This document shows positions 1,058 through 44,552 of a DNA stretch of 64,000 nt, in pieces. The stretch is from a virus. The notes under the pieces were generated by a model, which was given only the letters and a program-made list of their open reading frames with translations, searched no databases and had not been told where the DNA came from. The stretch is taken from positions 1 to 64,000 of IMG/VR virus record IMGVR_UViG_3300019776_000564; one strand, 5' to 3'. The position numbers were made by a program, and so were the translations under genes. How positions within the stretch are numbered: the first letter of the stretch is position 1; every line of letters starts with the position of its first letter.

Positions 1058-1088
1058 CCGTCAAACCCCTACTTTAGAGCGCTAACAT
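1058..1088 (+). promoter_or_regulatory. CC-N8-CC-N13-TAACAT promoter-like site (first of a family, see findings); overlaps a 12-bp-arm palindrome at 1074-1099
   Basis: CC 1058-59, CC 1068-69, TAACAT 1083-88; TTAGAGCGCTAA-CA-TTAGCGCTCTAA. Confidence 0.65.
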
Positions 1089-1123
1089 TAGCGCTCTAAT
1101 TCTTTATAAAGAGTGAAAGCGCA

Positions 1124-2029
1124 GTGACTAACGAATTTAAATCGAAAACCGTCGAAGTTAACCCAGCCGATTTCACCAAAGAGAAGTGCTGGGAAAAGCT
1201 TGAGAATCTTGCAGAGATCTTGAGCGTCCCGGGTCTTCTTCAGGCAGAACTGAAGCTGAGTCCTAAGTTCGGCAAAGCCTTCGACGACAAAAGCAAAGAA
1301 CTTCTTCACCTGATCGTCGATAGCTTCGACATCGCAGAGCGCGGCACCGACGAGTCGGTCGAAAAGATCTCCAAAGCCATCAACGATATTCGGAAGATCA
1401 AGTTTGACCACTTGATCGAAGAGGTTTCTATCGGTGCTCTGGCCCTTCAGAACCTCGATATCAGCGAGGTCATTATCCATATGGAGAAGGCTGAAGAGTC
1501 TGATCTTCCGGCGGGTGATGTTGATCGCGTCAGAAAGTTTGCCGAAAACCTCGACATCGACAATGACTCCATCGCCATTGCGAAGATCCACCCAACCATT
1601 TCAAAGATCATCCGTGCCGGCGTGTTTGCAGCCGGCAGTGAAGCTGCGTTCACTGAAATGCAAATGTCCGCAATGATGGCTATCCCCGAGAGCAGCCGTG
1701 AAAATCCTTCGGTAGTTCTTGCAGGGCAAATCACCGGCGCTCTGACGAAGGCGATCATTTCCAAAGCCATTGAAGAAGATATGGTTCGAGTTACGGCTCG
1801 CTCTATCATCGAAATGGTTATCGGCGCCAAGCAAGCGATCTGCATGGATCTCATTGCACCGTTCCAACTGAGTCCGGAAAACATGATCGATTCGCTTCAC
1901 GCCAGTGTGAAGCGCAGCATCCTTGATAATGGCGAGGAGGTTGAAGAGGTTGAAGAGGACGAGTCTCAGAACATGCCTTCTATCAAAGAAACCTCCCAAG
2001 TTTTCTCTGGCAACGGAACTGTGAACTAA
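1124..2029 (+). CDS. Hypothetical acidic protein
   Basis: 301-aa ORF downstream of promoter motif. Confidence 0.8.
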   Translation: MTNEFKSKTVEVNPADFTKEKCWEKLENLAEILSVPGLLQAELKLSPKFGKAFDDKSKELLHLIVDSFDIAERGTDESVEKISKAINDIRKIKFDHLIEEVSIGALALQNLDISEVIIHMEKAEESDLPAGDVDRVRKFAENLDIDNDSIAIAKIHPTISKIIRAGVFAAGSEAAFTEMQMSAMMAIPESSRENPSVVLAGQITGALTKAIISKAIEEDMVRVTARSIIEMVIGAKQAICMDLIAPFQLSPENMIDSLHASVKRSILDNGEEVEEVEEDESQNMPSIKETSQVFSGNGTVN

Positions 2030-2030
2030 G

Positions 2031-2396
2031 ATGAATGCCAAGCAGCGCAAAATCGCAGCCAGAATGCGTGAACGTGCGCTGCTTGACTCGGATGAGAAGC
2101 TTCGGAAGATAGAGGCTTCTCTTCGCGAGTTGGCAGCGGAACGTCAAGAGTTCGAGGAGAATTGCCGTTCGGTAAAGGAAACTCTCGCCGATCAAATCAA
2201 CAAGCACAACAAAGAGGTAACTGAGTTCCGCGAAGAGCGAGCAAACGCTATGAAAACTTGGCTAGAAGAAACTGGCCGACTGGAGAACGTTAACATCGTT
2301 CGTGAGGCTCTTCTTCAACTAGAGTTGGATGTAGACCCAGCGGAAATTGCTCTGGGTATCCGAAAGCAGCTTGGACTGATAATCCCGGAGTGGTGA
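2031..2396 (+). CDS. Hypothetical coiled-coil protein
   Basis: Tightly packed ORF. Confidence 0.75.
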   Translation: MNAKQRKIAARMRERALLDSDEKLRKIEASLRELAAERQEFEENCRSVKETLADQINKHNKEVTEFREERANAMKTWLEETGRLENVNIVREALLQLELDVDPAEIALGIRKQLGLIIPEW

Positions 2397-2397
2397 T

Positions 2398-2721
2398 GTG
2401 AATAGCATTTTAGAGGATGAGGTTCTTCAAGAGACAAAACGACTTAAAGCCCTCAATAAAGATCTCGTTAATTGGTCGCAAGAGATCGAAAAGAAAGAGG
2501 TCGAGCTTTACGAGCTTCGTGACTCTCTTGAGTGCCGAGAGTTCACGGTTGATGATCGAATTGAAAAGCTCAAGAAGGCTGAGACTCAAATGAGGGCGAT
2601 TAACAAGCCTGTCATCGACCTGATCAACGAGGTTATCCTTATGCTTGAGCTTGAAGCAGACAAGGATGAAATCCTCAAAATGGCAATCGAAAAGCGAAAA
2701 GCGTTCGACATAAATTGGTAA
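2398..2721 (+). CDS. Hypothetical coiled-coil protein
   Basis: Tightly packed ORF. Confidence 0.7.
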   Translation: MNSILEDEVLQETKRLKALNKDLVNWSQEIEKKEVELYELRDSLECREFTVDDRIEKLKKAETQMRAINKPVIDLINEVILMLELEADKDEILKMAIEKRKAFDINW

Positions 2722-2761
2722 ACTCGGGCGCTAACGTCTAATCCAGTAAGAGAAATATCAA

Positions 2762-3814: not shown

Positions 3815-3833
3815 CGCCAAGTAGCTGAACAAG

Positions 3834-3860: not shown

Positions 3861-3992
3861 GGCTAAATTTCAGTAAATCGCGGCAAAAATTTAGGACGGA
3901 TAGAATTTTAACCTTACACATAAGCCGACAACTGCCTTGTTCTACGTGACAGAATCATCTTGAGCTAAAAACGTATAGCGAGGTGATTAAGG

Positions 3993-7429: not shown

Positions 7430-7509
7430 CGCCCATGTAAGCCCTCAGTAGAAAAGTTAGACTGTCAGCTATCAAAGTGACAGTCTTTTTTATTGAAGGA
7501 GAACAAGCA

Positions 7510-8205: not shown

Positions 8206-10296
8206 AACGTTTATTTAAGGATGTTCAATTGGTTCTGACATCGGCGATCACCCTGGCAATCGGTCTGGCTTTTGGTGCTGTAATTGGCTCAGCGCTTGTA
8301 GATAAGCCTAACGAAAACGAAACGAGGGCGGCTCAGAACGAGCTTTGCCTCAAGGCCAACATGAAGCCTATTCTCGAAAAAGGCGAAATCGTCTGCTCTC
8401 CAAGTGAGGGCATTCAGTTGATCCGCGACTTCTTTGACACAAAGATGGCTAGCATTGTGATCGCTGAAAAGCTGCGACAAGAAGGCTTCCGCCCTAAAGG
8501 TGACGTGAACTGGCCTTCTGATAAAAAGGAAGACTTCAGGAAGCTGAACCCAATTGACCCAAACAGCTTTGAAACCAAGTCTAAGGTCACTGAGTAATGA
8601 ACGCATCTGAAGCCTTTTTGAAGTTCTGCAAGAAGAAAGGTATCAAGCCTAACGGTCAATTTGCTGAAGAGAATGGCTATCTATTCGTTGAGGGCTACAA
8701 GGTCGGTCACAAGACTGCAAGCGACCGAGTGCTGAAGTTCCAGCGCATGAGCAAAAAGGCTTCTCAAATGCAGCTTGAGGAGCACACAGAGGTTCTTGAG
8801 AAGTTCCTCAGGGTTTATCAGGCCGCTATTGCAGTCGTCAAAAGTGAAATTGCGGATGTAGCTGTTCATCCGTGTGACGAGAACAATGAAGAGGTGAAAG
8901 CTAAAAAGCTCCCACCTCTTCTTTCCGACCTTTACGAAGCGCTCAAGGATGTCCCTTGAGCATTACAAGTGGAGATGAAAATGAGCAAGCTTAGTCGTAG
9001 CCGTAAGCGTGAGATCCGGGAGAAAGTTCGTGAAGCTGTAGCTTGCGAGATTCGCGATCTGGACGCAAAGGTGTTTGAAAACATCGCGGAGAACGAAGAG
9101 GAACAGGCTTACGTGATGAAGGAGCGTGAAGAGATTGCCGCTCGCATCAACTATAAGCCGACAGGTGATAGCGAGTGAGCCAAACAAAGCTGCAATCTCT
9201 GAAAGAGACGCTATCCAACACTTTCATTGGCATGTTGGGTAGCTGGCTGATTGTTCTCACCTGCATAACCTACATTCAAAACAACCTTGTAGCGGCAACA
9301 ACCTCGACCATCCTTTGCACCTTTTGGAGCGTTGGTCGGGGTTACTGTGTTCGCCGCTACTTCAACAAACGAGAGACAGCATGAAAAAGCTTACAGACAA
9401 GGTTCAGAAACTCGAAGCTCGGGCTAAGCGAACCCTTGCGAAGAAACAGGCAAAGAAGCTTGAGCATCAGGCGGCAAAGTTCCGAGAGGACAGCTTGAAG
9501 CTTGGCTCGCAGCTTTCGGTTGCAGGTCAAAACATCTACAAGATCAACCATCCGGCGTATGAGGAGCTTATCCTCCCGCTTCTTGAACGAGCAGCGTCCA
9601 TCGCAGCGTTCTATGGCTTCAACGCGCTGTTTCAGGTTCATACGCCATTTGAAGAGCAGCCTCTGTTCACCAGTTGTATTGGTACGTTAAACGAAGAAAC
9701 CATTACCCCGACAATGCGCGGCTGCATCGAACTGATCGAGAAGCGCCCTGTCATTGGCAAGGTCAATGACGAGCTTATCTCTAAGCCTCGTACTGAACCT
9801 CTGATCCCCAAAGAATAGCTGCGATAATCACTGCTCATTAGTGAGGTGTTAAATGAGCGACGAATACTGCCTTGATGACGAACTCACCCGTAAAGCGGGT
9901 GAGGCTGCGTTATGGCTTGATGGGGAGATCAAGCGAGGAGGTCTTACACGATTTGAGGCTTACAACGCCCTTATCGTGTTCGATATGATCACGCTTGGCT
10001 TGATAGACCCGAAGTTCAACGACTGGGCGCGTGAAGAGCGAAACAAGGCTGCTATTGCCTATCCCGACAAGGTTGTTATGCACGCATACAACGCAAAGGG
10101 AGAGGAAACAGTTATTTCCGTTTCTCTTCGCCGTTCTGTGGGTGAAGTGGTCGTAACGCAACTGACCAGAAACCCGGAGTTTACATCGAAGACTCATACC
10201 TTTGATAACGAACCCGATCCCGTAACTGCTGCTTGCAAAGGCTATCTCGATATCATCGATAGGCTCAAAAGCAAGGGCTGTGTGGTGGTAGCCTAA
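8202..10296 (+). CDS. Run of six hypothetical ORFs (8202-8597 membrane-anchored, 8597-8959, 8969-9178, 9175-9384 membrane, 9381-9818, 9853-10296)
   Basis: Overlapping start/stop packing. Confidence 0.7.
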
Positions 10297-10864: not shown

Positions 10865-10930
10865 CTGCCGACTCTTTCCTGTGTGCGCTGCGTAAAATCA
10901 GCGCACAATCAACAACATAGAGCGCACAAC

Positions 10931-11260
10931 ATGCGGCTTAGCAAATTAGCGTTAGTCCTCGCTGCAAGCATGGCCCTCGCAGGCTGTGATAAAGCAGTCA
11001 TGATCTCCGAGAAACGTATCATTGTTGAAGTGGTTAGCGTTTCGCTTAGCTCCAAGTCAAATAGTCGGGTTACTCTGCGTGAGTTGCCATACGGCTATAT
11101 GTGGGAGGATCAGCGTCTGTCTTGCAGTAACAGTCGCGCTCGCCACGTCGAAGTTGGCAAAAGATGGGAAGTCACTGAGGCCCGCTACGAATACTCCGAA
11201 AGCAAGGGTCAGTTCTCCCGTCTTCTCGGCATCCCTTCAATCTGCGATCAGAGCAACTAA
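10931..11260 (+). CDS. Lipoprotein
   Basis: Signal peptide with lipobox LAGC. Confidence 0.75.
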   Translation: MRLSKLALVLAASMALAGCDKAVMISEKRIIVEVVSVSLSSKSNSRVTLRELPYGYMWEDQRLSCSNSRARHVEVGKRWEVTEARYEYSESKGQFSRLLGIPSICDQSN

Positions 11261-12344: not shown

Positions 12345-12493
12345 GTTGACTAGAGGCTCCCGCATCAAAGCCACACTCTGCCTTGTTGCGCTCTGTATCA
12401 TGAGCGCAACAGCTAAAACGCTAAGTAGCTGATTCGATTAGCTTTATATTTAGCGGTACTCACTCAAATATCAAAATCAAATAGGTGATTCGC

Positions 12494-14279: not shown

Positions 14280-14397
14280 AGTCTGTCGATAGCGCAGCTT
14301 ATACGAGCTTGTAGGCATGGCTTAAGTCACAGACTGCCGGGATAAGCCTATAAGCTGCGCGTAGAATCTAAGCATGTAGATCTATAGGAGTTCCAGA

Positions 14398-15286: not shown

Positions 15287-15373
15287 TCTAGGCTAAATTC
15301 TGGCGCCCAAATAAAACCTCAACGCGCTCTGTAAAATCAGAGTGCAAACAACAACTTAGTGAGAGTCCAAGCA

Positions 15374-16047: not shown

Positions 16048-18197
16048 ATGACTCTCGTCATTGTTGGCTGGGTAGCAATCCTGCTTATCACTGCATACCT
16101 GCTTTTCTCCAGCTTCGCAATTTTCGTTGGTGGGCTTGGTCTGACAGGCAAAGTTCCGGGTGAGTTCTACTTCTTTGTGGTTCTAACAGGGCTTATGGTT
16201 TGGCTCTGCTATCACACTTGGCCCTTTGAAGTAGCTATTAAGGCCACGCAATGATTTGGCTGAAGCGGCTTTTCAACTTGCCAGCCCTTGTGTGCCTCCA
16301 CGTCCAGCACTCAAAGCAGTATATTCGTGTTCAGAAAGCGCAGAGCGACTTACATTGGGCTTGCGATCAGTGTGAAGACCCTAACAGCATGGCTGTTAGA
16401 AGCTTCACCCGCAGTCTGGAGCTTGAGCTTGAACGGATGACTGAAATTGACGAAAGGATCTATAAGCTATGGTCGAAGGGTCGAGGTTTGAAGATCGACT
16501 AACCGACATTGCCCGGGCAGAGTTTTGTGCTCTGCTCAAGGCAAGGGTTTGGCAGTTGGAAGTTGAAATCGCAGAGCAGTTGGAAATCGAAGAAGCTTTG
16601 ATGGTCGAGTTCCAAGTCGAGAATCGCAAAATTATGGGAGGTTGGGCATGAAAGGTTTTTTGAAGCGTAAAGTTGGCAAGCTGTTTGGTTTCTCGAAAGA
16701 GATCGAGCGTCTGGAAATGGCTTTGGTTGCTGTAAGCGTTGCTACTCAGGCAAACACTCGTCAGGCCGCAATTCAGCAGCGTCTGTCGGAAGACAGCCCC
16801 TGGTTCTGCGCAGCAGTTGCCGATGTTCATCATGCAGTTAACCGTGAGATCGCTCTCCGTGAAGAACTTCAGGCTGCTAACGAACGTTTCAGCTTTTCGA
16901 TCAGTGCCCGTGACAACCTCCGCGAAGCACTGCGACGCAAGTCCGGCGAGTGTGAGGATCTGAAAATCAAGATCATTGAGCTTGAATCCTTAGGCTCTAA
17001 ACTCACCCTCATCGACCCTCTGTCAACCAAGAACTGCATCAAGTGCGGTAGCGAAATGATCCCTCTTCGCAGCGAGGACAAAAAGCTGTGCAGTAACGGC
17101 GCTTGTGGTCATGAGATCGAATGGCTTCTCGAAGAGGGTCAGGAGTACATGCACAAGCGCAACGTGGAACCGTTCGTGGAAGATCGCTCCAACGTATCTC
17201 TTCGCCGTGAAATCGAAGAAGAGTGATCCCATGAACAGGATCATGAAATTGATCTCTGAAGACGTAGACGGCGCAGTTATTGTTGCCGTCGTTTCTCTCG
17301 TAGCGGTGCTCATAGCAATAGTTGCTTTGGGCTATTTGAAGTAGGGGGTAAGCGTGGCGATCCATATCAAGACAGATATGCTTGCAACGGTTGTAAATCA
17401 GCAGACTAACCCGGATATGTTTGCAGGTTCGGGTGACGGTGGCATGCACCTCAAGGCTATGCGCAGTCTGGTTGGCGGCGACATTCAGATTATCAGTCTG
17501 AAAAAGCCTCTGATCATGGATGGTGTTACTTACACCTGCATGGGTATGAACGAGGAAGGCAAGTTCAGCGGCCTCAAGATCAACATGGTTGCAACCAAGA
17601 TCGCCAAAGAGCATACGTCGATTGCACATGACGATGTGATCGTTGGTGATGCGGTTCTTTTTGAAGCAAGTGAGGTGCTGTGATGGCTCGTCTCATCACC
17701 GAAGAACAGTTGGCGGAAATCATCAACGATCTTCGCAGCCAACCCGGCTGTGTCTCCAGCGAAAGCTATAACTTTGGTTCAGACCATGCTTCTGAGCTAA
17801 TCATCAACAAGCTCAAAACTCTGCCGAAATACGAGGAGGTAAAAGAATGAGCCAGTACAGCACCGTAACTCACGTTTCGCCGCACAAACTCGGCTGGTTC
17901 CGCAAATTTGCAAATATGCTGACTGGCTGCCGCTTCCACTACCAGATCGATCTGGTCTATTACTACGAGCAGGATGAAGATGGCTGCTTCGTAGACAACA
18001 AGTTCTACAGCCACACCACCCAAATCAGCGTTATCGACCCGAAAGCCCTCGACTACGATCAACGCCGGACCCTCCATAAGATGCTGTTCCCGAAATTCAT
18101 CAAACGCATCAAGGGCTACGGCGGTGGTAATACGCTCAAGGGCGGCAAGACCAATAGTATCCGCATCGAGAACATCCAGTATCTGGGTTACTACTGA
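16048..18197 (+). CDS. Run of small ORFs (16048-16254 membrane, 16251-16502, 16469-16651 ending MGGWA, 16648-17226 Zn-ribbon, 17231-17344, 17354-17683 DUF3846-like, 17683-17850, 17847-18197)
   Basis: Coupled starts/stops; NEEGK..N..AT..IVGDAVL in 17354-17683. Confidence 0.7.
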
Positions 18198-19235: not shown

Positions 19236-19336
19236 TAAGTTTGGCTGTCAAATGGCAGCCAAACTTACCTATCTCAAAAGCTCGTAGAATCAACGCTCAA
19301 ATCAATGACTTACGTTAGCGCGTAACTTGAGCGAGG

Positions 19337-24855: not shown

Positions 24856-25425
24856 ATGAGCAAAGATAACCACGAACACAACCCAGAGTGCAGCCACTGT
24901 CAGATGCTCGCATCTGGCATGACTGAAGAGCAGGTTCGCGAAGCCTCCATTCAGCAAATCAAGGAAATGATCGAACGAAGCGGTATCGCGATCATTGGCG
25001 TTTCGCATGATGCCGAAAACAATGTTCCGGCATTCTTCTACACCGTTGGCTTTACTGACATCGGTATGCCAGAAGTGATTCTGTTTGGCCTGCCTGAAAA
25101 ACATGCTCTGCCAGCGATCAATCGCTACTTCAGTGAAGTCAAAGAAGGCACTCGCCCGAGTGGGCCTAGCCTGATCGATGACTACTTCAACCTGCCTGTC
25201 CAGATCATCAACGCAGACGCCGAAATTTCTTTGGGGATTGCGAGCGATACGGTCGCCTACTACGAGAATCAGGGTAAAGACTTGAAGCCAACCTTCGTTC
25301 AGTGGGTGCTGTCTGACAAGAATGGCGAGTTTCCCTGGAGCGAGAACTTCGAGCCTCACTTCTATCAGCCAGTAATCGGCCTTCCGCCGACTGAAGATCA
25401 GGCTTCAGACCGAGTTCTGCACTGA
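24856..25425 (+). CDS. DUF4262-like protein
   Basis: FFYTVGF..GMPEVILFGL, QWVLSDKNGEFPW. Confidence 0.75.
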   Translation: MSKDNHEHNPECSHCQMLASGMTEEQVREASIQQIKEMIERSGIAIIGVSHDAENNVPAFFYTVGFTDIGMPEVILFGLPEKHALPAINRYFSEVKEGTRPSGPSLIDDYFNLPVQIINADAEISLGIASDTVAYYENQGKDLKPTFVQWVLSDKNGEFPWSENFEPHFYQPVIGLPPTEDQASDRVLH

Positions 25426-25458: not shown

Positions 25459-27302
25459 ATGAAAAGCCTCGAAACGTTGGTTGAAGTCCCGGAAGAGTTG
25501 AAGGGTATCTACTCTTCATTGGAAGAGTTGAAAGCTGAGTTGGCGATCGTTGCGCCAAACAGCGAGCGCAACGATGTTCTCATGGGTAAGATCTTTGAGA
25601 AATTGACCACTGCTGAGGCAGAAGAGGTCAAGAAAGAGATCACGGAAATCGCCGTTGCGATGAACGATCTGATGAAAAAGCGTTTCGGTGAACCAACGCC
25701 AGAAGCAATTACTGGCCTCATCGTGTTCTCCGACTTGCTGCACGAATACTGCGAACCGCCGGCACTATCGTCTGAGCAGTTTCACGTACTTGTGGATTCA
25801 GGCGCCTTTGACGAACTGATGACGGGTACAGGCAAGTAGTAGTAAGCGCTTGCAAAGTCCAACACCTGCCACTCGCTCTCTCGTAAACTAGCTTTAACGC
25901 AGCGCAAAAGCTGCGATTTACGAGAGAGCTTTCCCATGACCGACAAGAATATCCACCTCGCCAGCAATAAACTGATCGCCGCAGCTTTTGAAGCGGCCGC
26001 TGTTGGAGAACCCGGGCAGTGTGTTATCGGGGTTTTCAAAGGTCTCGCCATCACAGCCTTAAAGTTTGAAGCTGTGACAGAGCGAGAAGGTATTGTTCGA
26101 GCCATCTGCACTGGCCCAGATAACAGTATCGTGGGGATCTGCGAAGCCAAAAAGTTTGAAGATATCCACGACTACCTAATAACCCGGTGTCAGCTAGCTC
26201 CTGCTCGCGTGAACTATGAGTGGAGCAAGTTCATCACCGCGAATGAAGCCGCTCTCCCCTACAAAACTCGCTTTGAAGAGGCTGAGTTGTTCAACAAGGC
26301 CAGCGAAGAAGCATCTCTAGGAACGATGGGTCAGTTTGAAGCTAATGGCCTCATGTACAGCATCGTTCACAATTCCGCGTTTCGCATCGTCGATAAAGAC
26401 GCCAGCAAAGATAGAACCAATCCAGAGTTCTATACCGTGTACATCCAAAACTCATCCGTGCAAGACCCTGATGAGTGTCTGGTCGACACAGAGTCGTTCG
26501 ATACCACGTTTGAAGCGATTGTGTTCATTCGCAACCACATTGAAAAGTCCCTGATGAAAGAATTTATGCCGAAAATGTTCTAACTCACACAACCAGTTGG
26601 GGTGAATAACATGATCCAGAAAAAGATAGGCAAAATTACCTTCGGTGCCGGAATCATGAGCTTTGTGCCGGCCGACATAGACACCAGTCTCAGCGATGAG
26701 GTCGTTTATATGGCTGCTCTGGGTGACGCCATCAACAACGCAGGTGGTCACCGAAGCTTCATGCGAGAAAATGGCTTTGTCCGTCGCAACACACTCGGTC
26801 ATATTCAGATTCAGGGAGAAGGCTGGATCATCGATTTCAAGAGCGAAGAGTTTATTACCGAGTTCAATCGCCTCAAAGACTCGAAAGACTGGGTAGCTTT
26901 CGCCGCACTGTCTCAGTTCGACACAGTGACCTCGTTCGATAACAAGGGAAATAAGAAGCCATGAGCCGCATTGACCTGATCAAACAAAAGCTTGGCGAAC
27001 CTACCTTGATTCACACAACCTGGGGTGTCGCAGAAAAGTGGCTGTTAGGCGCTCGCGTATCTCTGATCAATTGGCCTGAGAATGCCGGGACGTATCTGTG
27101 CTTTATCCCAACTCAACAGCAAGACTCTCGGCAGCTTGAGTGGCGTGCGGGAGATCAAGCTGCATGGTTCAGAGAACTGTACCCACAGTTCGATAAGATC
27201 AGCCTGTCTCACAGTCAGACCATCAGCAGAGAAGGCTTTGATGAGTGGCTAGATAAAGTGATCGCAGCTATGGCGCTCATAGCAACAAAGGGCACGCTGT
27301 AA
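25459..27302 (+). CDS. Four hypothetical ORFs (25459-25839, 25936-26583, 26602-26964, 26961-27302)
   Basis: ORFs; terminator-like hairpin at about 27324-27350. Confidence 0.7.
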
Positions 27303-27799
27303 TTATCTAGTAAACGCTTGCACAAAAGCCTGCTCTAAGCAGGCTTTTTATTTGGTGAACATAGCGCCTTGGAATCGTGAACATGTGTAAACCATTAACA
27401 TTCTGATGCACAACCTTAGGCGCGACAAAAGCCAACAAACATAAGGGTGAAAAGCCTGTTTACCCGTGTTCGAATGTTAATGGGTTGTTAATACCCATGC
27501 AGAGACGAGACAGCGATCAGCTAAGACAGAAATTTGTCTCTGGGAAGACGTCTGAGAGCTTCTACAAGACGAGAACCGGATATAAACAAGTCAGCGTACT
27601 GCTCAAACATTCCCATCGCTTATACGAGCTTGTAGAAGCTCGACCATTTTACGAAAACAGAACTTTAGGACTCCGGGTTAGTTACCTGTTTGGGAGCCAA
27701 CTCTTCCCTATTTAATAACTAGATAATACAAGCTGAAGTATTAAATAAGGGAAGGGTTGGATGAGGCTCTTACCCTAGAAGCCAAAGAGAGGGAGTTGC

Positions 27800-28674: not shown

Positions 28675-28836
28675 ATACGGCTACCGCTTAACCCAAGCAC
28701 GTATCCCGTGTAACCCCATAGCTGTCTAGCTAGACTACACACAAGCGCACACAGATAGCGCTACGCAAGACCATTGGTAATGAAACAAGCAAGTCATGGA
28801 AGTCAACAAGCCCTTAAACCAAGTGGAGTGTTAACG

Positions 28837-30077: not shown

Positions 30078-30439
30078 AGGATAGAACCACATAGGGAATG
30101 CGTAGAGGTGTAGAGAGGTATCTGTAGAGAACCATAGAGATATGCAGCGTAAGAAAGACCTGTAAGGAAGGGCGTGGTTCCTATAGAGGTGTAAGGGGTT
30201 GATGTAAGGAAGGAGGGGTGGTGTGTATTCAATTCACTGTCTCTATCTACCATCACAGGCCAAACCTTACAGTCTGAGTACGGTCTATCTAGCTCAGGCA
30301 CACATGACGGTCCACCTAATCCCGGCACACAGACACACCTACGCGTGATAAGCAGAACCTTCTGATAAGTACAGAGGAAGCCATCCGGTAGCCTCTGTAC
30401 CTCTAACACTTACCTCTCTTCTCTCTATAGACTTCACTC

Positions 30440-30683
30440 ATCAGCTAGAAACAAGCGTAGACAAGCAGCTAGCAGACACAGTGGGAAGCGCTCTGAAAGC
30501 TCGCACAAGCGACGAACCAGATTTACAGATATCAGAGCGTAGACAAGCAGAAGAAAGAGCTTCCCAGCGTGTTACAGAATCGAGCCAGGATAGGGCGCAT
30601 ATACTATCCCTCTCTCTTACTCCGCCTGAGGAGTATTCAAGACCACAGTCATTCCCTCTCCTTTATGACTGTGGTCTCTTTTT
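30440..30683 (+). ncRNA. Putative ~245-nt small RNA
   Basis: CC-N13-TAGACT at 30413-30433, internal helices, 13-bp terminator 30640-30683, no credible ORF. Confidence 0.5.
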
Positions 30684-30710
30684 ATCAGCAAGCCCGGGAC
30701 TCCACGGGCG

Positions 30711-33700
30711 CCGCGGCTTTAACAAACACCATCTCTACCCAATAAGACCCAAGCCCCAACAGTGCCGCGGCTAGCTTTAATAAACGCCGGGCCGTGGGAC
30801 ACCGAGTCCTTGGTAAGATTGGAGCCGCGGCAAGCCACTCTATGGATAGATTTGGGAGAACCAGAAAAAGGCTATAGGTGCCGTTATATATCACCAAGGT
30901 GCGTGTTTACCGCGGGGATAAGAGATAGGCATTACCAAGAGATAGGTAAGAGGCTTGCCAAGGCGTTTAGCCGCGGGAGCCATGTTTACAAATGTTGGTT
31001 TATTCACCGTCTGCCAAAATTTCTCTTACACAGGCACAGAGGTTAAACACGGCTTATACGGTGATAGAGGTGAAAGCAGGCTGAGATAGGTCTACCGCGG
31101 CGGGTATGATGCCTAACCTTGGTTGTTTGAACCACCCGGTATGCCGCGGCTCGGCGGTGTTAAAAACCATAAAACAGGTACTAAACAGGCTACCGGATAA
31201 CACCACTTGCAAGCGTTTACTATGAATCAACTCAGAGCAACAGACTCTGGGAACACTGAGAGAGCACCTATGAAAGACCTGAACGTTTTGCTGAAACAAA
31301 TGCAGGCGCACGAAAACGGTATGACTCTTGAGCAGTATCTGGGTCACTTCACCGAAGTCACCAAAGAACAGCGCCTGTTCAAGCTTGAAAGCTGTGAAGG
31401 TGACACCGGGTTTCTGCTGCGCAACGAAGATGGTTGCTATCACATCTGGTACGTGAGCACCTCTACTTCTCCCCTCTATGAGGGTGAGCGTTACCACGTT
31501 ACAGAAACCGGAAGCTGGTATCCCAATCAGCTCAACGAGGCCATGACTGACCTCATGCTGCAAATGAAGATCGATTGTGCGGGGTTGATCGAGCGTAACG
31601 GGGTGAAAATTCGGTAGAGATGAAACATAGGGGCTTCTGCCCCTTTCTTGTAGATAGGTTTACCGCGGCGATTTTATGACTCCCGACACATACCTAAAGC
31701 AAGCGTTTACTCTAATGTTCTACGCACATGAGAGAGTAACCGATGAACAAGCTCAACTTCGCCGCATACCGGTATGCGCTGAACAACGCCAAAGAAGAAG
31801 TGCAAGATGGCCGTTACTTTGGCGTTAACTGTGTAATGGTTGAACTGGTCAGCATCGACCAAGATGACTATCTGGTGATCTACAGCGCAGTAGAAAACAC
31901 TGGACCAGATACGGCCAACATTTTCTACAACGGTGAGCACTGTGCTGGTGTTATACACATACCCGGCGATCAGTGGTCTAAAGCAAACACCGTATTCACA
32001 GAGTTGTTTGGTGTAGCTCTGAAAGACGGTTTGCGAGGTGTGAAAGCGTATTATGACTCAGTAGCGTAGAAATACGCTCACGGTATAGCGCTGTGAGCTT
32101 CTATAACGCGTTTTGAGAGCTTTACCGCTATAAAGATGAGTCGATGTACTGCTTGTCTTGGGAAAGCGCTCAAAACGCGTTATACGAGCTTCTAGATAAG
32201 CCGTGGCAAACGTCTGTCCCAGTACCTATTGCCAACAAGTGCCAATTGCAAGCGTTTACTATGATCTCAGTGAGCAGCGACACAGCTGCCGTTACTGAGA
32301 GAGTGATATGAAAACCACAGACTTCAAGGTGCTAGCGCCGGTTGCAGTGAAGGGTAAGAGCCTTCGTGAGCTTCAAAAGGCTTTCGTGGCCTATCGTGAC
32401 GACAACGATCTCGGTTCTCGTGACCTGAAACGCTATGACGGCTGTGTGTATCGCAGTGGTGTGCTTGTAGGCTACTTCTCGTACAACGGTCGCTTCTGGC
32501 GTAAAACGATTCACGGTCAACCACTTCACGTCACTTCGTATCACGGGAGCTAACGCCATGCAAAAGTACCAAATTCGCTACACAATCGGTGACAGCGCTC
32601 GCTGCCGTTACTTTGAAGGTGAATACGAAAGCGAAGGTGAAGCTATCGAAGACTGGGAAGACTACTGCGAGCGCTTCGACGACGGTGTTGATTTCATCGA
32701 TTGCCGTGAATTTGCAGAAAACGGTAAAGAGTTTATCGAATGAACAAGCTTGAACTCCGGGAGTTTCTGGAAAAGAAGGCCGCTGAGTACGCCTCGCGTA
32801 ACCCTATCTATACCCATGCAGAGAGCTTTGACCAAGAAAAGCGCCTCAAAGCCAAGATTGAGACCCGTAAGAAGCCTGCAAACCTCACACAAGACGGTTA
32901 TGTGGTGTATCTGAACGAGCTTAAAGTCGGCACTCACAAGACAGAGGTTAAGCCTTCAGAAGACTTGTGGGACGTAGAAATGCCCCGTTATGAGGTTCGC
33001 TACAAAGAAAGGGGTAGTACGGTAATCAAGAGATGGCGCTGCTATGCCCAAGATGCAGACGAAGCCATTGAAGACTTCAAGCACCTGTACAAGAAAACAA
33101 GCGTGGTGAAAGCTTGGATCATCGAGGCTATTAAAATTAGCGAATAGCCATAAACAAAAAAGCCACTTCTTGTTAGAAGTGGCTTTGTTCGTCGGGTATA
33201 GGCATAGCCTATACCCTAGAACGGTAGATTGTCAAGAGCCGCGGCATAGGTTTGTTTACCAACATATGCCAATAGCAAGCGTTTACTATAACAACAGATC
33301 GAAGCAAACGACTTCGACAGTAGAGAGAGCTTTACCATGATTGATTCCCAGATTCTCGCCGGATTATCCGAAGAGCACCGTGAGCGTGTTCTGAACATGA
33401 ACCGTGTAACACCGTTCTTGATGATGTGTGAAGCTGTAGGTTCAGAGGCTCTACCGTCGCAGATTGCTCGCCTCGAAGAATCTGCCAAGAAAATGTTTGC
33501 ACCTGAGTATCGCTTCTATGCTCACCGCGCTGCCGAACTTTGCGGCATCAAGCTGAACCTCGAACGCACCGAAACTGATAATGACGGTATCCCACTATGA
33601 TCGCCACAGCAGTTGTTCAGAAAACCGTGTTTCTCGTAATCATGGCCTGCACAGGCATGAGAGATACAGCCTGTGATGATTCTGTCTATGCCGAATCTTG

Positions 33701-34811
33701 GTATGGCCCAGAAAGCAAAGAAGAGTGCGAAACCTTTATCCACCGTAAAGAGTTCGACCCCAGTGACTACCTTACTCTGGGTAATCATGAATACTACGCA
33801 GTGAGGTGCGAGTGATGAACAACTACGGCTATGAAGTGAAATACTGGGATGCAAACGGGAATCTTCTCTGTGTAGAGGTAGTCGTAGCTGCACCCGAAGA
33901 CTGGCGCTATGCAGAGCGCATGGTTCTAGAGCAGTCTCATGTGACCACTGTAGAAAGCTCTGTGTTCCTGGGCATGACCGACACTGCACCCGGCATTCAA
34001 GAATCAACCGTTCTTGTACTGAGAGAAGCAGAGCCAGAGTAATCTGGCTTTTAAACACAGCCGTGCCGCGGCAAACCTATAGTAGAGGTAGTCCACGGTC
34101 TATAGGCACTAGGCATGACGGTCCATGGACTCCCGGCACACAGGTCATGCGTGTATGGTTCTCTTAAGCCGTTCTAAGAGGTTTACCGCGGCGCGTCCTT
34201 GGGCCGACCCGGGTTAGTCTTCTAAACGCCTCCTAGTGCCTCTCTGAGAGCTTTAAACTGCTTGTATAGCAGCGTCAGACTGCTACCAGACATTGAGAGA
34301 GGCTCCACCATGAAATTGATCTGCAACGGGTTCAAAACCACTGGTACAGACAGTGAAGACCATATCTACTTCTTCAAAGCCACTTTCAGCGGTGAAGACC
34401 TGTTTTTCGAGCTGACCAACAGTGAAATCGCCGAAATCACTGATGACGGTGATTACCAGCTCCCACCACGCTTCGATTTTGGTTTCCGTGAACCTATGAT
34501 CTGCCAGCTTCTTCACTGGATGCATACCGTCTACTGGAAAGACGAAGACGGGATTCTCGAAGGTTGCACCATCGAAATGACTCGACCAGAAGGTGTCTAA
34601 CCAGAGCAGCCCGGTTACACCGGGCTTTCTTAGCTATCTCAGAGCCGCGGTAAGCCGATCTCAGCCAATATCAACCTTGGTCCAAAAAAGGCTATAGGTG
34701 CCGAATATAGGTATAAGGCGGGCTTTGGACATATGTGGTGTAGTCCCGCGGCGCTCTCAAATGAGAATCATTCTCAGGGGCGCTGCGAATCGTTCTCATT
34801 CGCGACCGCGG
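30711..34811. repeat. 14 intergenic CCGCGG-core motifs (extended consensus GATAGGYTTRCCGCGGC, both orientations)
   Basis: Starts at 30711, 30765, 30825, 30910, 30971, 31095, 31144, 31663, 33239, 34066, 34186, 34645, 34746, 34806. Confidence 0.85.
31270..34600 (+). CDS. Small ORFs in separately promoted units (31270-31617, 31743-32069, 32308-32553, 32558-32743, 32740-33147, 33337-33600, 33597-33815, 33815-34042, 34310-34600)
   Basis: Each unit has a CC-N8-CC-N13-(-10) motif and a GAGAGAG RBS on its first gene. Confidence 0.75.
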
Positions 34812-34979
34812 TTGAGACGCATTCTCAAATGCAAATGATTCTCATTCTCAAATACGAATGATTCTCATTTCACTCAAATGAGACGCATTCTCAAATGCAA
34901 ATGATTCTCATTTTCAGACAATAATCGTTCTCATTCTCAAACAAGAATTTATCTAATTCTCAAGTGCGAATGATTCTCA
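34762..34979. promoter_or_regulatory. Array of nine Fur-box-like 15-mers
   Basis: TGAGAATCATTCTCA (perfect 7-1-7) plus eight variants; 34-bp direct repeat 34813-34846 / 34879-34912. Confidence 0.7.
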
Positions 34980-35098
34980 ACACCTGTCTTCTCTTATTAC
35001 ATGCGCACGCGCGCAAGTAGCACAGCAAATTAGAATGAGCAAGAATTTTTTAGTTATATGCTTATGCTTTTCCGATCTATCAAATATCTAATAATCGC

Positions 35099-35126
35099 TT
35101 GCATCAAAATCTAGTTAGTCTAATAT
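35099..35126 (+). promoter_or_regulatory. Sigma70-like promoter of the CC/GG-free operon
   Basis: TTGCAT-N16-TAATAT. Confidence 0.5.
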
Positions 35127-35206
35127 TCAACTCAAGCGACGCAACAACGCGACGCTAACGAAGTAGCTCAATAACGAAGCTACTCACTTCTAGAGAGAGA
35201 TATAAA

Positions 35207-35761
35207 ATGACTCAAGTTAACGCTAAAGCTGTAGCTAACAAAGAAGCTTTTGAAGTTGTTGCAGCTGAGTTTGCTGCAACTAAAGAGCAAGCAAGTGCGC
35301 AAGCTGCTCAAGCTCAAAACGACGAAGAGCGTAAAGCGTTTGCAGATGCTGCTAAAACAGCGTCTACACACGAACGCTACACTAACGCACTTGCTAACAT
35401 GAGCGAAAAAGCGCTCGCAAGTTTGAACAAGTACAAAATCAACGCTACTGAACTTGCTAAACAATCGCGTGAACTGAAAAAGCGCTCTATTGCGATCATC
35501 GAAGCGATTGTAACTAAGCAACGCGTTAACGATCGCGCACTTGACGCAGTGTTACAGTACATCGTCGCTAAAGACGCTGCGAGCATGACGCTTGAGCAAG
35601 TGCGCACGCAAATGCAGCACGAAACTACTACGCAAGCGCAATACTTCAAAACTTGCGCAATCTTTTTCAACTTCGCGCAGTACTCTAAGTCTGAAAAGAC
35701 TATCAACTTCAACAAAGACGCTACTGTCTTGAAAGAGTTGATCGCGATCTACACTGTGTAA
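35207..35761 (+). CDS. Island protein 1 (184 aa; no Gly/Pro/Trp)
   Basis: GAGAGAGA RBS; followed by hairpin plus T tract at 35772-35808. Confidence 0.85.
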   Translation: MTQVNAKAVANKEAFEVVAAEFAATKEQASAQAAQAQNDEERKAFADAAKTASTHERYTNALANMSEKALASLNKYKINATELAKQSRELKKRSIAIIEAIVTKQRVNDRALDAVLQYIVAKDAASMTLEQVRTQMQHETTTQAQYFKTCAIFFNFAQYSKSEKTINFNKDATVLKELIAIYTV

Positions 35762-35829
35762 CAGTGTGCGCAAGCGCTCTAGAACGTCTCTAGAGCGCTT
35801 TTCTTTTCTAGTCTGAGTGAGACAACGCA

Positions 35830-36129
35830 ATGAACAAGCAAATCGCTGTAAACGCGCTACAGAGCGCTACAGAGCAAGCGCTGCTAGACGTGCAAGCTAG
35901 CGTGCTGCATATGCTACAGAATCGTAGTGCTGAGACGTACTATCAGCACGCACAAGCGCTGCGACATACGCTCACATACGCTAGCACTGAGTATGTGTTT
36001 AACGCTGTTAAACGACACGTGCAGCGCACTACAGCGCAACGTGTGAGCATGAAGCAAAGTATCAGTGTATTGCGCAGTGATATACGCGCTGCTATGCGTG
36101 CAGATAAGTATTCATTGTTTGCACACTAA
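35830..36129 (+). CDS. Island protein 2 (99 aa; no Gly/Pro/Trp)
   Basis: ORF with GAGTGAG RBS. Confidence 0.7.
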   Translation: MNKQIAVNALQSATEQALLDVQASVLHMLQNRSAETYYQHAQALRHTLTYASTEYVFNAVKRHVQRTTAQRVSMKQSISVLRSDIRAAMRADKYSLFAH

Positions 36130-36164
36130 GTTATTTAAACTTTTCTCTTCTTACTTGTGAGTAT

Positions 36165-36497
36165 ATGCAAATGACTAAAGTATCGTTCTCTAACGTTATC
36201 GCTGACGCTTTCAGCGCTGAACAAATGCAAGATATCAGCAAAGCAGACTATAACAATCTGCTTTCTATTCTCGACATAAAGTCAAAGTATATCGAGTTTG
36301 TTAATAACGCTGAGTGCATGCACTTGCTTATTGTGCATGATGCGCGCAATAACAAGTATGAAATTGTTAGTGTGTATATCAGCGCTAACTTAGAGCATTA
36401 TCAAGTAACGTTAGTTGATACTTGCGATACACTGTCAGACGCATATAACGAACTGCATAATTCGTTGCAACTTCTACTCAGTGAGTGCGACAACTAA
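36165..36497 (+). CDS. Island protein 3 (110 aa, acidic; no Gly/Pro/Trp)
   Basis: ORF. Confidence 0.75.
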   Translation: MQMTKVSFSNVIADAFSAEQMQDISKADYNNLLSILDIKSKYIEFVNNAECMHLLIVHDARNNKYEIVSVYISANLEHYQVTLVDTCDTLSDAYNELHNSLQLLLSECDN

Positions 36498-36505
36498 GTT
36501 AGTTG

Positions 36506-36684
36506 CTTACTTACACTTTTCTAAGTTGTCAAAGTCTTAGAAAAGTGTAAGTAAGACGTGACCCTACTCCCTTCTAAATCCCGGATACCTGCACTCTAAC
36601 CTTACACAGGTAGGTAGGAAGTTCCCACACGCTCTCCTTACACAGGTAGGAACAGGTTCACAATACAATCCCTTACACAGGTAG
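36506..36684. repeat. 20-bp perfect inverted repeat plus three CCTTACACAGGTAG direct repeats
   Basis: Arms 36506-36525 and 36536-36555; repeats at 36600, 36636, 36671. Confidence 0.9.
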
Positions 36685-36779
36685 CCTTACGCTCCCAACG
36701 TCTTACGCACATACTTGATAAACAGTCAGCGCTGATAAGCAGCTAAGCACTTAACCACTAAACACTTAAGGAGTTACCC

Positions 36780-37466: not shown

Positions 37467-37615
37467 AATGTAAGTCTCTTTCCGCTTAATAAAAGCCCAG
37501 ACCATGAATCTGGGCTTTTATTTGGCAGTCTGTACTTGCCATAGATGCAAGCGTTTAATAGACAACTAGAAACGACGCACGCTCTTTAACAGACAAAGCA
37601 GTTGATAGATAGGTA

Positions 37616-40067: not shown

Positions 40068-40184
40068 GCTAAAAAGCCCTTGAATTGTCATACGGCAGTC
40101 AAGGGCTTTTTGTTGGCTAACTTGAAAAATCTAGTAAACTCTTGCATACTTTACACATAACAGACGTACAGCGAGACACGAATA

Positions 40185-40787
40185 ATGGCTATGCCAAAGA
40201 CAATCGAAGTAGGCGGCGTTGTGATGCCTTGTCGCCAGATTAACGTCGGGACAAGCATCCTTGATGTGCCCAAAGGCATTGGTCGCAACAATCGGAACAA
40301 GTGCTGGCAGATAAAGATCATTCGCAAAGGCGAAGTTCTACTCTCCGGGCAGTTCACTGACGCTCAATATGGTGGCGCTCAGAAGTCGCTCGACGCCGCA
40401 CTCAAGCTTCTGGCCGACTCGAAGCTGGTTGAAGCGCCTAAAACACTGAAGCTAAGTGCCAGACTGTCATTATTCTGGGCTTTTAGCAGTGCGAACGTGC
40501 TGAGCTTGAGTGCAAGCTTGTACAACCAGAACACCGGCCGTAGTCACACGACCTACCTTATCAGCCACCATAAGCTGAAGTCTGGCAAGATCGACGGTCT
40601 TCATGAGAAGTTGTTAGGCGTTTACGTGAGAATGTGGGCTGAGGTGAACAACCTCAAAACGAGCGACGTCCCGGTCTTGCGAAGAATTGAGCTGGTTAAA
40701 ACCGTTGGCGACGTAATGAAGAGCAAAGAGTGGGAAGACTTCATGAGCTTGGGCGCTGAGTTAGCCGCCCAGAAAGAAAAGGCTTAA
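40185..40787 (+). CDS. Protein with AP2-like DNA-binding domain
   Basis: PKGIGR..WQIKI.RKG..FTD.QYGG...L.AA; sigma70-like TTGAAA-N17-CATACT at 40122-40150. Confidence 0.55.
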   Translation: MAMPKTIEVGGVVMPCRQINVGTSILDVPKGIGRNNRNKCWQIKIIRKGEVLLSGQFTDAQYGGAQKSLDAALKLLADSKLVEAPKTLKLSARLSLFWAFSSANVLSLSASLYNQNTGRSHTTYLISHHKLKSGKIDGLHEKLLGVYVRMWAEVNNLKTSDVPVLRRIELVKTVGDVMKSKEWEDFMSLGAELAAQKEKA

Positions 40788-42080: not shown

Positions 42081-42081
42081 G

Positions 42082-42540: not shown

Positions 42541-42555
42541 CTTACAACTTACAAC

Positions 42556-42942
42556 TTACTTGCGCAGGCTTTTGGTCAGATAACCGCCAATTGCCATAGC
42601 GGAAGCTTCAAAGTTGCCGGCCCATTCCCACTCACCCAAAACCCACCGCTTGAACGTTTGTTCGTCCAGTTCAACCTGAGCTTGAACCGACATTTCGATC
42701 ATGGCGATAGCACGCTCGAAATCTTTCGAGAAGTTGCCGGGTTGTTGCAGACGAAAGTGGATATCGGACAGATCACCAGTCTTGGCGCGCTCGACAGCCT
42801 GTTCCAGAAAATCGACCGCAGCCTGCTTGAATCCGGCATCAGCGATCTTGAACTCGGCCTGATGCTTTTCCAGACCAGCGCGAAGCTTCTCCAGAAGATC
42901 AGCCTTGTTAACAGTAATCTTGCGGTCGTTACCTACAAACAT
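42556..42942 (-). CDS. Hypothetical protein
   Basis: GGAG RBS; 128-aa ORF. Confidence 0.75.
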   Translation of the reverse strand: MFVGNDRKITVNKADLLEKLRAGLEKHQAEFKIADAGFKQAAVDFLEQAVERAKTGDLSDIHFRLQQPGNFSKDFERAIAMIEMSVQAQVELDEQTFKRWVLGEWEWAGNFEASAMAIGGYLTKSLRK

Positions 42943-43207
42943 GGTCTAACTCCGATGGTTTGTGAAAACTTAGGTCTGAACCATCGTATTGATCAGCGTT
43001 TCGTCACTGACATACGGGATTCCACTGTGGCCACAGTCCGCGTCTTTACCTTTAGACGACAATGCAAATGGCTCAGACCTAAATTTTCAAGAAAGCAGGC
43101 TCGCGCCGGCGGCCTGCTTTCTAAGTCATCAATTCTATATTCATCGCCTCGCTTAGAGGTCGGCTCGGAGGTTTAACGGGCCTCTGCTCGACCTCTAACG
43201 AGGCAGT

Positions 43208-43405
43208 TCACTCCTTTGGAGTGGTTTCGGCGCTAGGTTTGGTTTTGATCAAAGGCAGGATCAAAACCAGAAGAAGAACTGCAAGGAACCCGTCTGCGCA
43301 CACGCTGATGATCCGGGATACGCTATCGATCACCACAATGCCAGCAAGAAGGATCATGATGAGAATCGCCCGAAGGCGACTCCCGATCTCTGTGACCCAG
43401 GCCAT
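43208..43405 (-). CDS. Small membrane protein
   Basis: Two hydrophobic segments; coupled to TerB-like gene. Confidence 0.7.
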   Translation of the reverse strand: MAWVTEIGSRLRAILIMILLAGIVVIDSVSRIISVCADGFLAVLLLVLILPLIKTKPSAETTPKE

Positions 43406-43851
43406 CAGTCTTCAAAGTCCTTCAGGTTCAGGCCCATCCACTTGGCAGCCTGTTCCAGAGCTTTGCGCTCGCCTTCGTCGATGCCGCCTTCGTCGGCGAT
43501 GGTCAGCATGATGTTCATGACGGTCTTGGCTTCTTCCGGGCTGTGCTTGAGATCGCTCAACTCTTTCTCGGCGTTCTGACGCAGAATGCGACGACCACCA
43601 TCGCGGAAGTCAGCTTCAGCGCGGTCGATGGTGTCGGACAGTTCAGCACCGAAGCCTTTCAGCATAGGGTTGTTAGCGATCAGCTTTTCGGTCTTTTTCA
43701 GTTCTGTCTCGCTCAGATCGCCATCAGCAGCAGCGACGAAGACTGCACCGTAGACGACGCCCTGCATCAGATCGCGGTTCATGTTTTTAGCCATCGCTGC
43801 CTGAGCTTCTGCGGTGGTCTTTTTGAATTTCTTGCCGAACATGCCGAACAT
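43405..43851 (-). CDS. TerB-family protein
   Basis: VAAADGDLSETE, IADEGGIDEGE..L; AGGAG RBS. Confidence 0.8.
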   Translation of the reverse strand: MFGMFGKKFKKTTAEAQAAMAKNMNRDLMQGVVYGAVFVAAADGDLSETELKKTEKLIANNPMLKGFGAELSDTIDRAEADFRDGGRRILRQNAEKELSDLKHSPEEAKTVMNIMLTIADEGGIDEGERKALEQAAKWMGLNLKDFED

Positions 43852-43865
43852 TGTGAATCTCCTAA

Positions 43866-44390
43866 TTAACGAGTCCATGACTCGATCTTTACCCTGTCTT
43901 GCGGAATTGCAAGGTTCAGAGTAAGCACACCAGCCTTTTTAGCGGTTCTGATGTACCTTTCAACGTGATCGCCGGGTTCAGACCAGCAAATCAGCATCTT
44001 TGCAACGCTCACTCGGTCAAGACCGTAAATCAGTGAGTTTGAAACTATCTCCCACTGTCTCTCTGACAAAGGAAGCATCAGAAAGCCCGGGTTTATTGAG
44101 CGAGCAAAGGTGGCATCACCACTCGACGGAGAAGTATCCGAAGGTATGGCCCAGGGAGAGTACGACTTTACAATCGCATCATCCCGGTCAAGCGATTCGT
44201 CTATGAATCCACACGGCACAAACGAATGAAACATGCCCATAGAACCACTGATGAACGCTTTGTCTGCGTTATTCTGCTCGCTGCATCGAAGCATGATGCC
44301 TTTACCTCGCATCACTTTAGCCATTCGAGTCATAAGGCTGAGAACGTCAGAAGGAGTGTTGCTTGAACCACCTGCTGCATAAGCTCTCAT
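43866..44390 (-). CDS. Divergent SLOG/DprA-like protein
   Basis: YAAGGS..TP..LR....ADKAF, LICWS; sigma70-like TTGCTA-N17-TAAAGT upstream. Confidence 0.5.
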   Translation of the reverse strand: MRAYAAGGSSNTPSDVLSLMTRMAKVMRGKGIMLRCSEQNNADKAFISGSMGMFHSFVPCGFIDESLDRDDAIVKSYSPWAIPSDTSPSSGDATFARSINPGFLMLPLSERQWEIVSNSLIYGLDRVSVAKMLICWSEPGDHVERYIRTAKKAGVLTLNLAIPQDRVKIESWTR

Positions 44391-44552
44391 CTTTATTTCT
44401 CTTGTCGCTGCGTTTCGATGAGTGAACTTTATAGACGCTGTGTAAGGTTAGCAAGCGCTTTGTGTAAGTTTTTTATTGAAGCCCACTTAAGATGATTGGA
44501 TAAAAATCTCTTGCAAACCTTTCAGACGCTCGGATAGTATCCACTTCGTTGA

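Follow-up and report, generated by a model that had tools for sequence, protein, structure and literature searches.

Near-absence of CC and GG from a promoter-aligned zone and from one operon in a relative of Pseudomonas phage Nican01

The middle promoters of phage T4, which depend on MotA and AsiA, combine a normal -10 element with an element near -30 that replaces the -35 box, and to our knowledge they are not subject to any dinucleotide ban. Avoidance of short motifs by phages, in response to restriction or CRISPR, is known as a genome-wide and partial trait. Where a base modification of the kind set by DpdA (7-deazaguanine) or by Mom of phage Mu is decided by a short sequence context, some DNA segments would be left free of the mark by their sequence; we know of no description of promoter-specific avoidance of the target motif in phages of this type. 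RegB of T4, finally, acts on RNA and reads only GGAG, a ribosome site thereby serving as the target of a phage factor. Here we analyze a stretch of 64,000 nucleotides (nt) of viral DNA, hereafter the window, which forms the first 64 kb of the 108,018-bp IMG/VR virus record IMGVR_UViG_3300019776_000564 and has a GC content of 49%. In this DNA the dinucleotides CC and GG are nearly absent from a zone of 45 nt at the predicted promoters and from one whole operon.

The predicted promoters resemble those of T4 in layout only: the upstream element consists of two CC steps (sCC-N8-sCC) that end 13 nt before the -10, and not of a 9-bp MotA box. As in the T4 plan, the gene of the presumed activator would sit in an operon that is read from a canonical host promoter and whose products are one mid-sized and two small proteins. 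A PHROG search with these three products returned no counterpart of MotA or AsiA, and a fold search with the 184-aa one matched a generic winged helix only. With motif avoidance, as in the global depletion of the protospacer-adjacent motif (PAM) CC reported for Pseudomonas aeruginosa phages (PMC12174588; PMC4246573), the locus shares the word that is selectively missing; here, however, the absence is near-absolute, confined to 45 promoter-aligned nucleotides and placed next to a conserved CC. The enzymes of the DpdA and Mom pathways were not found encoded here. The comparison with RegB makes it relevant which class of genes carries GGAG and which a site without GG, but in this genome the ban extends to CC, and untranscribed DNA comes under it too.

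Expectation maximization on 116 upstream regions from this genome and from Nican01, performed blind to CC/GG content, gave a single motif, sCC-N8-sCC-N13-TAnAAT. The results on the zone rest on 45 intergenic, co-oriented sites that score at least 11 bits, 23 of them here and 22 in Nican01. The hexamer that ends the motif is close to TATAAT. A -35 box near TTGACA at 16-18 nt from the -10 was not present at these sites, the region being taken up by sCC-N8-sCC with only an ACA core. The two CC steps, 8 nt apart and on the top strand only, are the only conserved upstream features of the 45 promoters in the two diverged genomes (131 CC versus 25 GG at -40 to -21 from the motif end). A scan with the strict sigma-70 consensus returned 10 sites, fewer than the 17.6 of shuffled sequences, and could not serve for alignment; canonical promoters are few (35098 and 40122).

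Over the 45 sites, the zone of 45 nt that starts at the base after the second CC and reaches to about +20 contained 22 CC and GG steps, compared to 171.7 +/- 10.4 in mononucleotide shuffles (observed-to-expected ratio, O/E, 0.13), whereas CG and GC were enriched (285 versus 180.9, O/E 1.58). No CC or GG at all was found in 33 of the 45 zones, as against 2.4% of shuffled zones. The 25 nt past the motif end had not been used in building the motif, and they held 6 CC+GG where 51.1 were expected in this genome and 7 where 56.8 were expected in Nican01; separated by step, this amounts to 3 CC and 10 GG versus about 108 expected in both genomes. Motif look-alikes within genes or on the wrong strand (26 sites) had a median free distance of 8 nt, compared to 31 nt at the 45 sites (p = 8e-8). 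CC/GG is as scarce in the untranscribed spacer as in the leader. Since both CC and GG are banned, and in the untranscribed spacer too, the constraint acts on double-stranded DNA. An initial annotation of the window had proposed that CC+GG be compared with CG+GC in alignment with the -10 under control for composition. Once the promoters are aligned, the depletion survives this comparison and CG/GC moves in the opposite direction.

With the -10 taken as -12 to -7, the second CC lies at -27/-26, and start sites are predicted from the -10. The ban begins at the base directly after the second CC. Up to about +19, the first CC/GG is encountered with a probability of 0.004-0.012 per nucleotide, which jumps to 0.11 at +20 to +22, the genome-wide value being 0.098; beyond this a weaker depletion (0.05-0.08 per nucleotide) persists until about +43. 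At promoters with long leaders the free run still ends 20-52 nt past the -10, and the zone is therefore tied to the promoter and not to the whole leader. An open complex encloses about -25 to +20 of a promoter, which is also the range in which a bound protein occludes polymerase. We infer that the sharp step at about +20 marks the downstream edge of the polymerase footprint. The earlier suggestion that CC/GG hinders open-complex formation or promoter escape agrees with the extent of the ban, which covers the presumed initiation footprint from past the -35 to about +20 and ends in a sharp step.

By gene order and weak DNA similarity the genome lies close to Pseudomonas phage Nican01 (genus Nickievirus, 57% GC), a distant relative. 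Nican01 shares little DNA identity with this genome, and zones are found at its orthologous promoters. The 12 orthologous zone pairs are 57-80% identical; 11 are free of CC/GG in both phages, and one has a single CC/GG in Nican01. Five more promoters with free zones were found in the relative L010. By comparison, the host-type promoters A1, A2, A3, B, and C of T7 carry 1-6 CC/GG in -25 to +20. The phage SSU5, which the genome plan of the Nican01 group resembles, showed neither a CC/GG-free island nor the promoter pattern in the first 100 kb of its record, where the longest free run is 154 nt. Because the trait is absent from the T7 host-type promoters and from SSU5, it is specific to the lineage rather than shared by strong promoters in general. 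In our literature search we met with no account of CC/GG being banned locally at promoters, and papers on nickie-like phages yielded nothing on the subject; the footprint-sized promoter zone with its sharp limit at +20 is the new part.

The free runs themselves are ordinary in number and length. All 11 CC/GG-free runs listed in the initial annotation were found, with bounds one base wider on each side than given there. Free runs that reach 70 nt number 13, compared to 19.5 expected per genome under a first-order Markov model with a separate fit to each 2-kb block, and runs of 55-80 nt are not more frequent than the local Markov expectation; 10 of the 13 longest runs are intergenic. The 1490-nt run at 35073-36562 is the only one longer than all Markov simulations. 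Dinucleotide-preserving shuffles gave a longest-run p < 0.1 in 16 of 45 upstream regions for CC/GG, compared to 4 of 45 for CG/GC. For the 46 genes whose upstream gap measures 75 nt or more, the composition-corrected O/E of CC+GG averages 0.79 over -70 to -1, compared to 0.77 in random coding 70-mers. Averages aligned on the start codon thus show no excess depletion, and promoter alignment is needed to see the signal. The significance of CC/GG-free DNA in this genome rests on its position and not on run length. The caveat that AT-richness and ascertainment account for part of the pattern was justified for the number and length of runs, but not for the aligned zone, which remains depleted after correction for composition. 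Genome-wide, both steps are mildly depleted (O/E 0.82 for CC and 0.80 for GG in the window, a comparison that has no host baseline). The corresponding value in the Nican01 genome is 0.79, and codon junctions show 0.75-0.78.

The 1490-nt run covers an operon on the + strand. Together with the adjoining 34811-35072 it forms a CC/GG-poor region of 1.75 kb (34811-36562) with two CC and no GG, which comprises a repeat array, a promoter, three genes, and terminators that are likewise built without GG or CC. The operon is one transcription unit. Its promoter, near 35098-35127, is canonical (TTGCAT, 16 nt, TAATAT), and the operon is therefore probably expressed first. The three genes (35207-35761, 35830-36129, and 36165-36497) encode products without Gly, Pro, or Trp. 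The orthologous operon of Nican01 lies in a free run of 1083 nt (96377-97459). The structure predicted for the 184-aa product, with a predicted local distance difference test score of 95.9, consists of a helical hairpin followed by a C-terminal winged helix. The modeled winged helix shows a local likeness to DNA binders of the MarR type (probability 0.99, E ~0.2), and a Foldseek search of the Protein Data Bank with the 184-aa model gave no match at E <= 0.001. A PHROG scan of ten proteins encoded at 31-38 kb, including the three operon products, returned no matches. Protein-atlas matches of the 99-aa and 110-aa products were at chance level, and a 0.82 match to an Nmad4 "nucleotide modification" cluster was not counted. 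The 184-aa protein has 77 homologues with 44-100% identity, 64 of which also lack Gly, Pro, and Trp. In the relatives L008-L013 the gene lies in CC/GG-free DNA: five of them show one uninterrupted run of 0.9-1.3 kb, and L009 shows about 0.9 kb with two CC/GG interruptions. Free runs are only about 100 nt long in the most distant relatives (31% identity).

Further, the ribosome sites of promoter-proximal genes, those next in line after these promoters, differ from those of other genes. GG is missing from -20 to -4 in 17 of 41 promoter-proximal genes compared to 28 of 240 others (p = 1.6e-5), and GAGAG is present in 11 of 41 compared to 8 of 240 (p = 5.7e-6). GAGAG was confirmed upstream of all nine start codons for which it had been noted, although at 34310 the motif continues into GG. 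Its counterpart in Nican01 is AACGAGAG. Promoter-proximal genes also more often have a CC in the 7 nt that precede the start codon (18 of 41 versus 53 of 240, p = 0.006); in the window and in Nican01 this often takes the form GAGAG-N4-7-CC(C)ATG. The GG-less GAGAG sites would be a by-product: a short leader would place the ribosome site in or beside the zone, where it would be written without GG.

We tentatively propose that the zone is kept clear for RNA polymerase and that a phage-encoded factor, for which the 184-aa winged-helix protein is the candidate, docks on CC. CC, read on either strand, would be the docking signal of a DNA-bound factor that is most likely phage-encoded. The free operon would be expressed first from its host-type promoter, and at early and middle promoters its DNA-binding product would then recognize a pair of CC steps spaced by one helical turn (about -37/-36 and -27/-26) in place of a -35 box. 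An additional CC/GG between -25 and +20 would seat the factor where polymerase is blocked, so that selection would have removed such steps. Several points weigh against this proposal. Two bases offer very little specificity to a winged-helix protein. Simple occlusion leaves 1.5 kb of free coding DNA in the first operon unexplained, whereas the genes of other operons have a normal CC/GG content. The host-type promoters at 35098 and 40122 are free as well, despite having no CC pair, and all promoters and start sites are predictions made from the sequence. A further, improbable reading is that an early phage product or mark blocks the host RNA polymerase wherever CC/GG lies in the DNA that it grips, the CC/GG-free phage promoters and the first operon staying active.

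Among the other explanations, chance combined with AT-richness and ascertainment would account for the ordinary number and length of runs and for an averaged upstream depletion equal to that of coding DNA. It is hardly credible, since the aligned analysis rejects it: 24 free nucleotides are reached at 37 of 45 promoters compared to 13-15% of random intergenic positions, and the zone is also kept in a relative whose GC content is 57%. Evasion of host defence, that is, of a type I-F CC PAM (or of I-A/I-B, or the NGG of II-A) or of restriction enzymes, has in its favor that CC is a true two-letter recognition signal and that CC/GG is reduced genome-wide. However, cutting is lethal anywhere in the genome, so a clearing of 45 nt protects nothing, and the conserved CC at about -27/-26 of every family promoter is itself a type I-F PAM for the protospacer from -25 to +7. 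PAM avoidance is therefore a poor fit. The zones are also rich in other restriction palindromes (GCGC, AGCGCT, AAGCTT, and TCTAGA), and the known hosts of the cultured relatives are strains of Pseudomonas syringae, which rarely carry CRISPR-Cas. Taken together, we regard this explanation as very improbable. Intrinsic properties of the steps could be involved if GG/CC slowed opening or escape, or disturbed hairpins at the -10, so that strong early promoters were built from GC/CG steps only. The match between the zone and the presumed footprint is consistent with such an effect, as are the GCGC-based inverted repeats found around the -10 of many promoters, with compensating changes between orthologues. 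GC and CG stack more strongly than GG/CC by standard nearest-neighbor values, though, and yet they are enriched in the zone. The CC/GG content of the T7 promoters argues against this explanation too, the free coding operon is left unexplained by it, and we consider it improbable.

Avoidance at the level of RNA, with leaders shunning GG because of a reader of GGA/GGAG (a host repressor of the RsmA/CsrA type, or a RegB-like nuclease cutting at ribosome sites) and shunning CC because of Rho loading, would explain why GG-less GAGAG sites are commoner at promoter-proximal genes and why a weaker depletion extends from +20 to about +45, within the leader. Against this, CC/GG is lacking to the same degree in the untranscribed spacer (-25 to -13), CC and GG are equally banned, which would need two unrelated readers, and the ban in long leaders stops short of the start codon. 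A search for a RegB homologue (PF10715) found none, but it was uninformative, as the control genomes gave no signal. We judge this explanation to be improbable as well. A covalent and possibly bulky mark on C or G in CC/GG context of the virion DNA, clashing with polymerase and kept out of the first operon, which the unaided host enzyme would transcribe, would account with a single cause for both the zones at promoters and the free operon; the footprint-like size of the zone and its strand symmetry fit such a mark. No function is known for about 70% of the genes, which may therefore include an unrecognized enzyme; two ParB-like genes and a gene for an ABC-type ATPase lie before the terminase genes. 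The genome-wide O/E of about 0.8 is contrary to what a protective mark would lead one to expect. Six-frame searches with working controls showed that TGT/DpdA and the C5-, N4-, and N6-methyltransferases (PF01702, PF00145, and PF01555) are absent. No modification enzyme was revealed among about 100 proteins scanned against Pfam and PHROG, one of the Pfam lists holding the best 25 of 56 families, and neither glycosyltransferase nor Mom-like families were among the matches listed. No match at E <= 0.001 to a GNAT/Mom-like gene was obtained at 46.8-51.3 kb. A PHROG match to "DNA methyltransferase" arises from the two ParB-like proteins, and the thymidylate synthase was rejected as a modifier because it adjoins dihydrofolate reductase, as expected for a true synthase. 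As no modification enzyme was found, this explanation lacks positive support and we consider it unlikely. The initial annotation had preferred a bulky modification to PAM avoidance; its rejection of the latter holds, while the enzyme that its alternative calls for was not found.

The individual promoters and free runs lie on the + strand, with one exception given below. The motif at 1056-1089 (-10 TAACAT at 1083-1088) is followed by a free run at 1069-1149, so that the element spans 1056-1149; the orthologous zone of Nican01 is 62243-62313, and the first gene after this promoter starts with GTG at 1124 and has a ribosome site without GG. Further promoters are found at 3923-3982 (score 13.9, free run 3936-3982, gene 3993 with GAGG at the end of the run), 7431-7498 (score 12.3, free run 7444-7498 with a terminator-like hairpin, gene 7510), and 10866-10935 (score 15.2, free run 10879-10935, with an inverted repeat whose loop carries the -10 TAAAAT). 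The promoter at 12369-12455 (score 14.5, free run 12382-12455) has a long leader to gene 12494, and the free run at 14348-14387 of the promoter at 14335-14387 (score 16.1) ends at the GGAG site of gene 14398. A weaker member of the family at 15305-15367 (score 8.8, free run 15318-15367) precedes gene 15374, which has a GAGAG site. Next come a promoter at 16293-16357 (score 13.6, free run 16305-16357) and another weaker member at 19258-19335 (score 8.6, free run 19269-19335, gene 19346). GAGAG is again present downstream of the promoter at 24786-24870 (score 13.7, free run 24799-24870, gene 24856). At 25857-25933 (score 11.9, free run 25870-25933) the site is GAGAGAG, followed by CCC before the ATG at 25936.

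The promoter-like site at 27695-27749 (score 15.7, free run 27708-27749) lies within a long AT-rich hairpin. A free run at 28717-28771 follows CCC-GTGTAA-CCCC, a weak member of the family (score 8.0), and one at 30414-30483 follows CC-N10-CC and contains the -10 TATAGA, a variant spacing that is not scored by the motif. Four promoters are each followed by a gene with a GAGAGAG site: 31191-31249 (score 15.2, free run 31204-31249, gene 31270), 31681-31740 (score 15.6, free run 31694-31740, gene 31743), 32230-32289 (score 18.7, free run 32243-32289, gene 32308), and 33257-33335 (score 15.8, free run 33270-33335, gene 33337). They are followed by the promoter at 34227-34286 (score 19.3, free run 34240-34286, gene 34310). 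Downstream of the free operon there are a promoter at 36683-36755 (score 11.1, free run 36696-36755, gene 36780) and a weaker family member at 37527-37612 (score 8.9, free run 37540-37612), with a BoxA-like CGCTCTTTAAC at 37580-37590 in its promoter-proximal leader. The free run at 40116-40187 covers a host-type promoter (TTGAAA, 17 nt, CATACT) lacking the CC pair, upstream of gene 40185; its orthologue is Nican01 100610-100685. The exception in strand is the free run at 44372-44446, upstream of the minus-strand gene 43866-44390, with CC, about 13 nt, and TATAAA on the minus strand.

Additional elements were observed around these features. Hairpins that resemble terminators overlapping with promoters, with the next promoter's -10 in the loop and in some cases a T run behind the hairpin, occur at G000 82438-82484 and Nican01 34400-34445. 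A similar pair is formed by 1069-1100 of the window and Nican01 62243-62275; the arms differ between the phages while their complementarity is kept. Just upstream of the free operon, 34762-34979 contains about 11 ATTCTCA units, among them the perfect palindrome TGAGAAT-c-ATTCTCA at 34762, and this array could be an operator array or a set of iterons. An alternating purine-pyrimidine tract with a GCGCACGCGCGC core lies at 35000-35016, about 90 nt upstream of the operon's promoter, and similar tracts are present at about 96275 in Nican01 and about 270 in L012. Right after the operon's terminator there are three direct copies of CCTTACACAGGTAG (36600-36684) at a spacing of 35-36 nt. The leaders of the free operon in relatives hold CGCTCTTTAACAA or CGCTCTTTAAAAAC (L013 at about 8650-8700, L009 at about 9800, and L016 at about 9660). 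The BoxA-like elements suggest antitermination by Nus factors.

CCGCGG occurs 14 times in the 4.1 kb of intergenic DNA at 30711-34806 and four times in the other 60 kb, often about 15-20 nt upstream of a family promoter and flanked as in (a/g)CCGCGGc, and probably represents a binding site for a protein. The motif GTAAACGCTTGCA is found at 27312 and 53565 on the + strand, at 31208, 32247, and 37546 on the minus strand, and two further promoters, at 31714 and 33290, carry it in their spacers as well. In one orientation, as GCAAGCGTTTAC, it fills the spacers of five early promoters, and we regard it as a second candidate operator. Long AT-rich inverted repeats flanked by CCC/GGG (such as CTTCCCTATTTAATA ... 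TATTAAATAAGGGAAG) are located at 27705-27752, 51337-51390, and G000 at about 79925-79985. One of them immediately precedes the terminase genes, and the repeats may act as origins or in late regulation. The 1.1 kb at 30078-31200 contain no convincing gene and are unusually rich in CC/GG and in short repeats of the tagagg and ataGG types, the opposite of the free zones. Gene calls were made with our own simple scorer, which places nearly all genes on the + strand. The genome encodes ribonucleotide reductase, thymidylate synthase, a polymerase of the Pol III alpha type, RecA, CobS/CobT-like proteins, the two ParB-like proteins, and siphovirus structural genes. Three tRNA genes, for Met (CAT), Asn (GTT), and Arg (TCT), lie at 44553-44982.

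The ban is nearly complete, and it is limited to about 45 bp at some two dozen promoters plus one whole operon. Such a zone implies that a reader of CC/GG acts on double-stranded DNA, that it is not lethal in gene bodies, and that it conflicts with initiation. Host shut-off in T4 by Alc depends on modified bases, and other phages use a phage polymerase. If instead an early product of this phage blocked the host polymerase at CC/GG, nearly every promoter of a GC-rich host would be hit, and shut-off would be achieved by a two-letter code. The question can be tested in the cultured relatives nickie, Nican01, and psageB1, which infect Pseudomonas syringae. Should the factor or mark be found, it would represent a new way for a phage to organize or protect early transcription.

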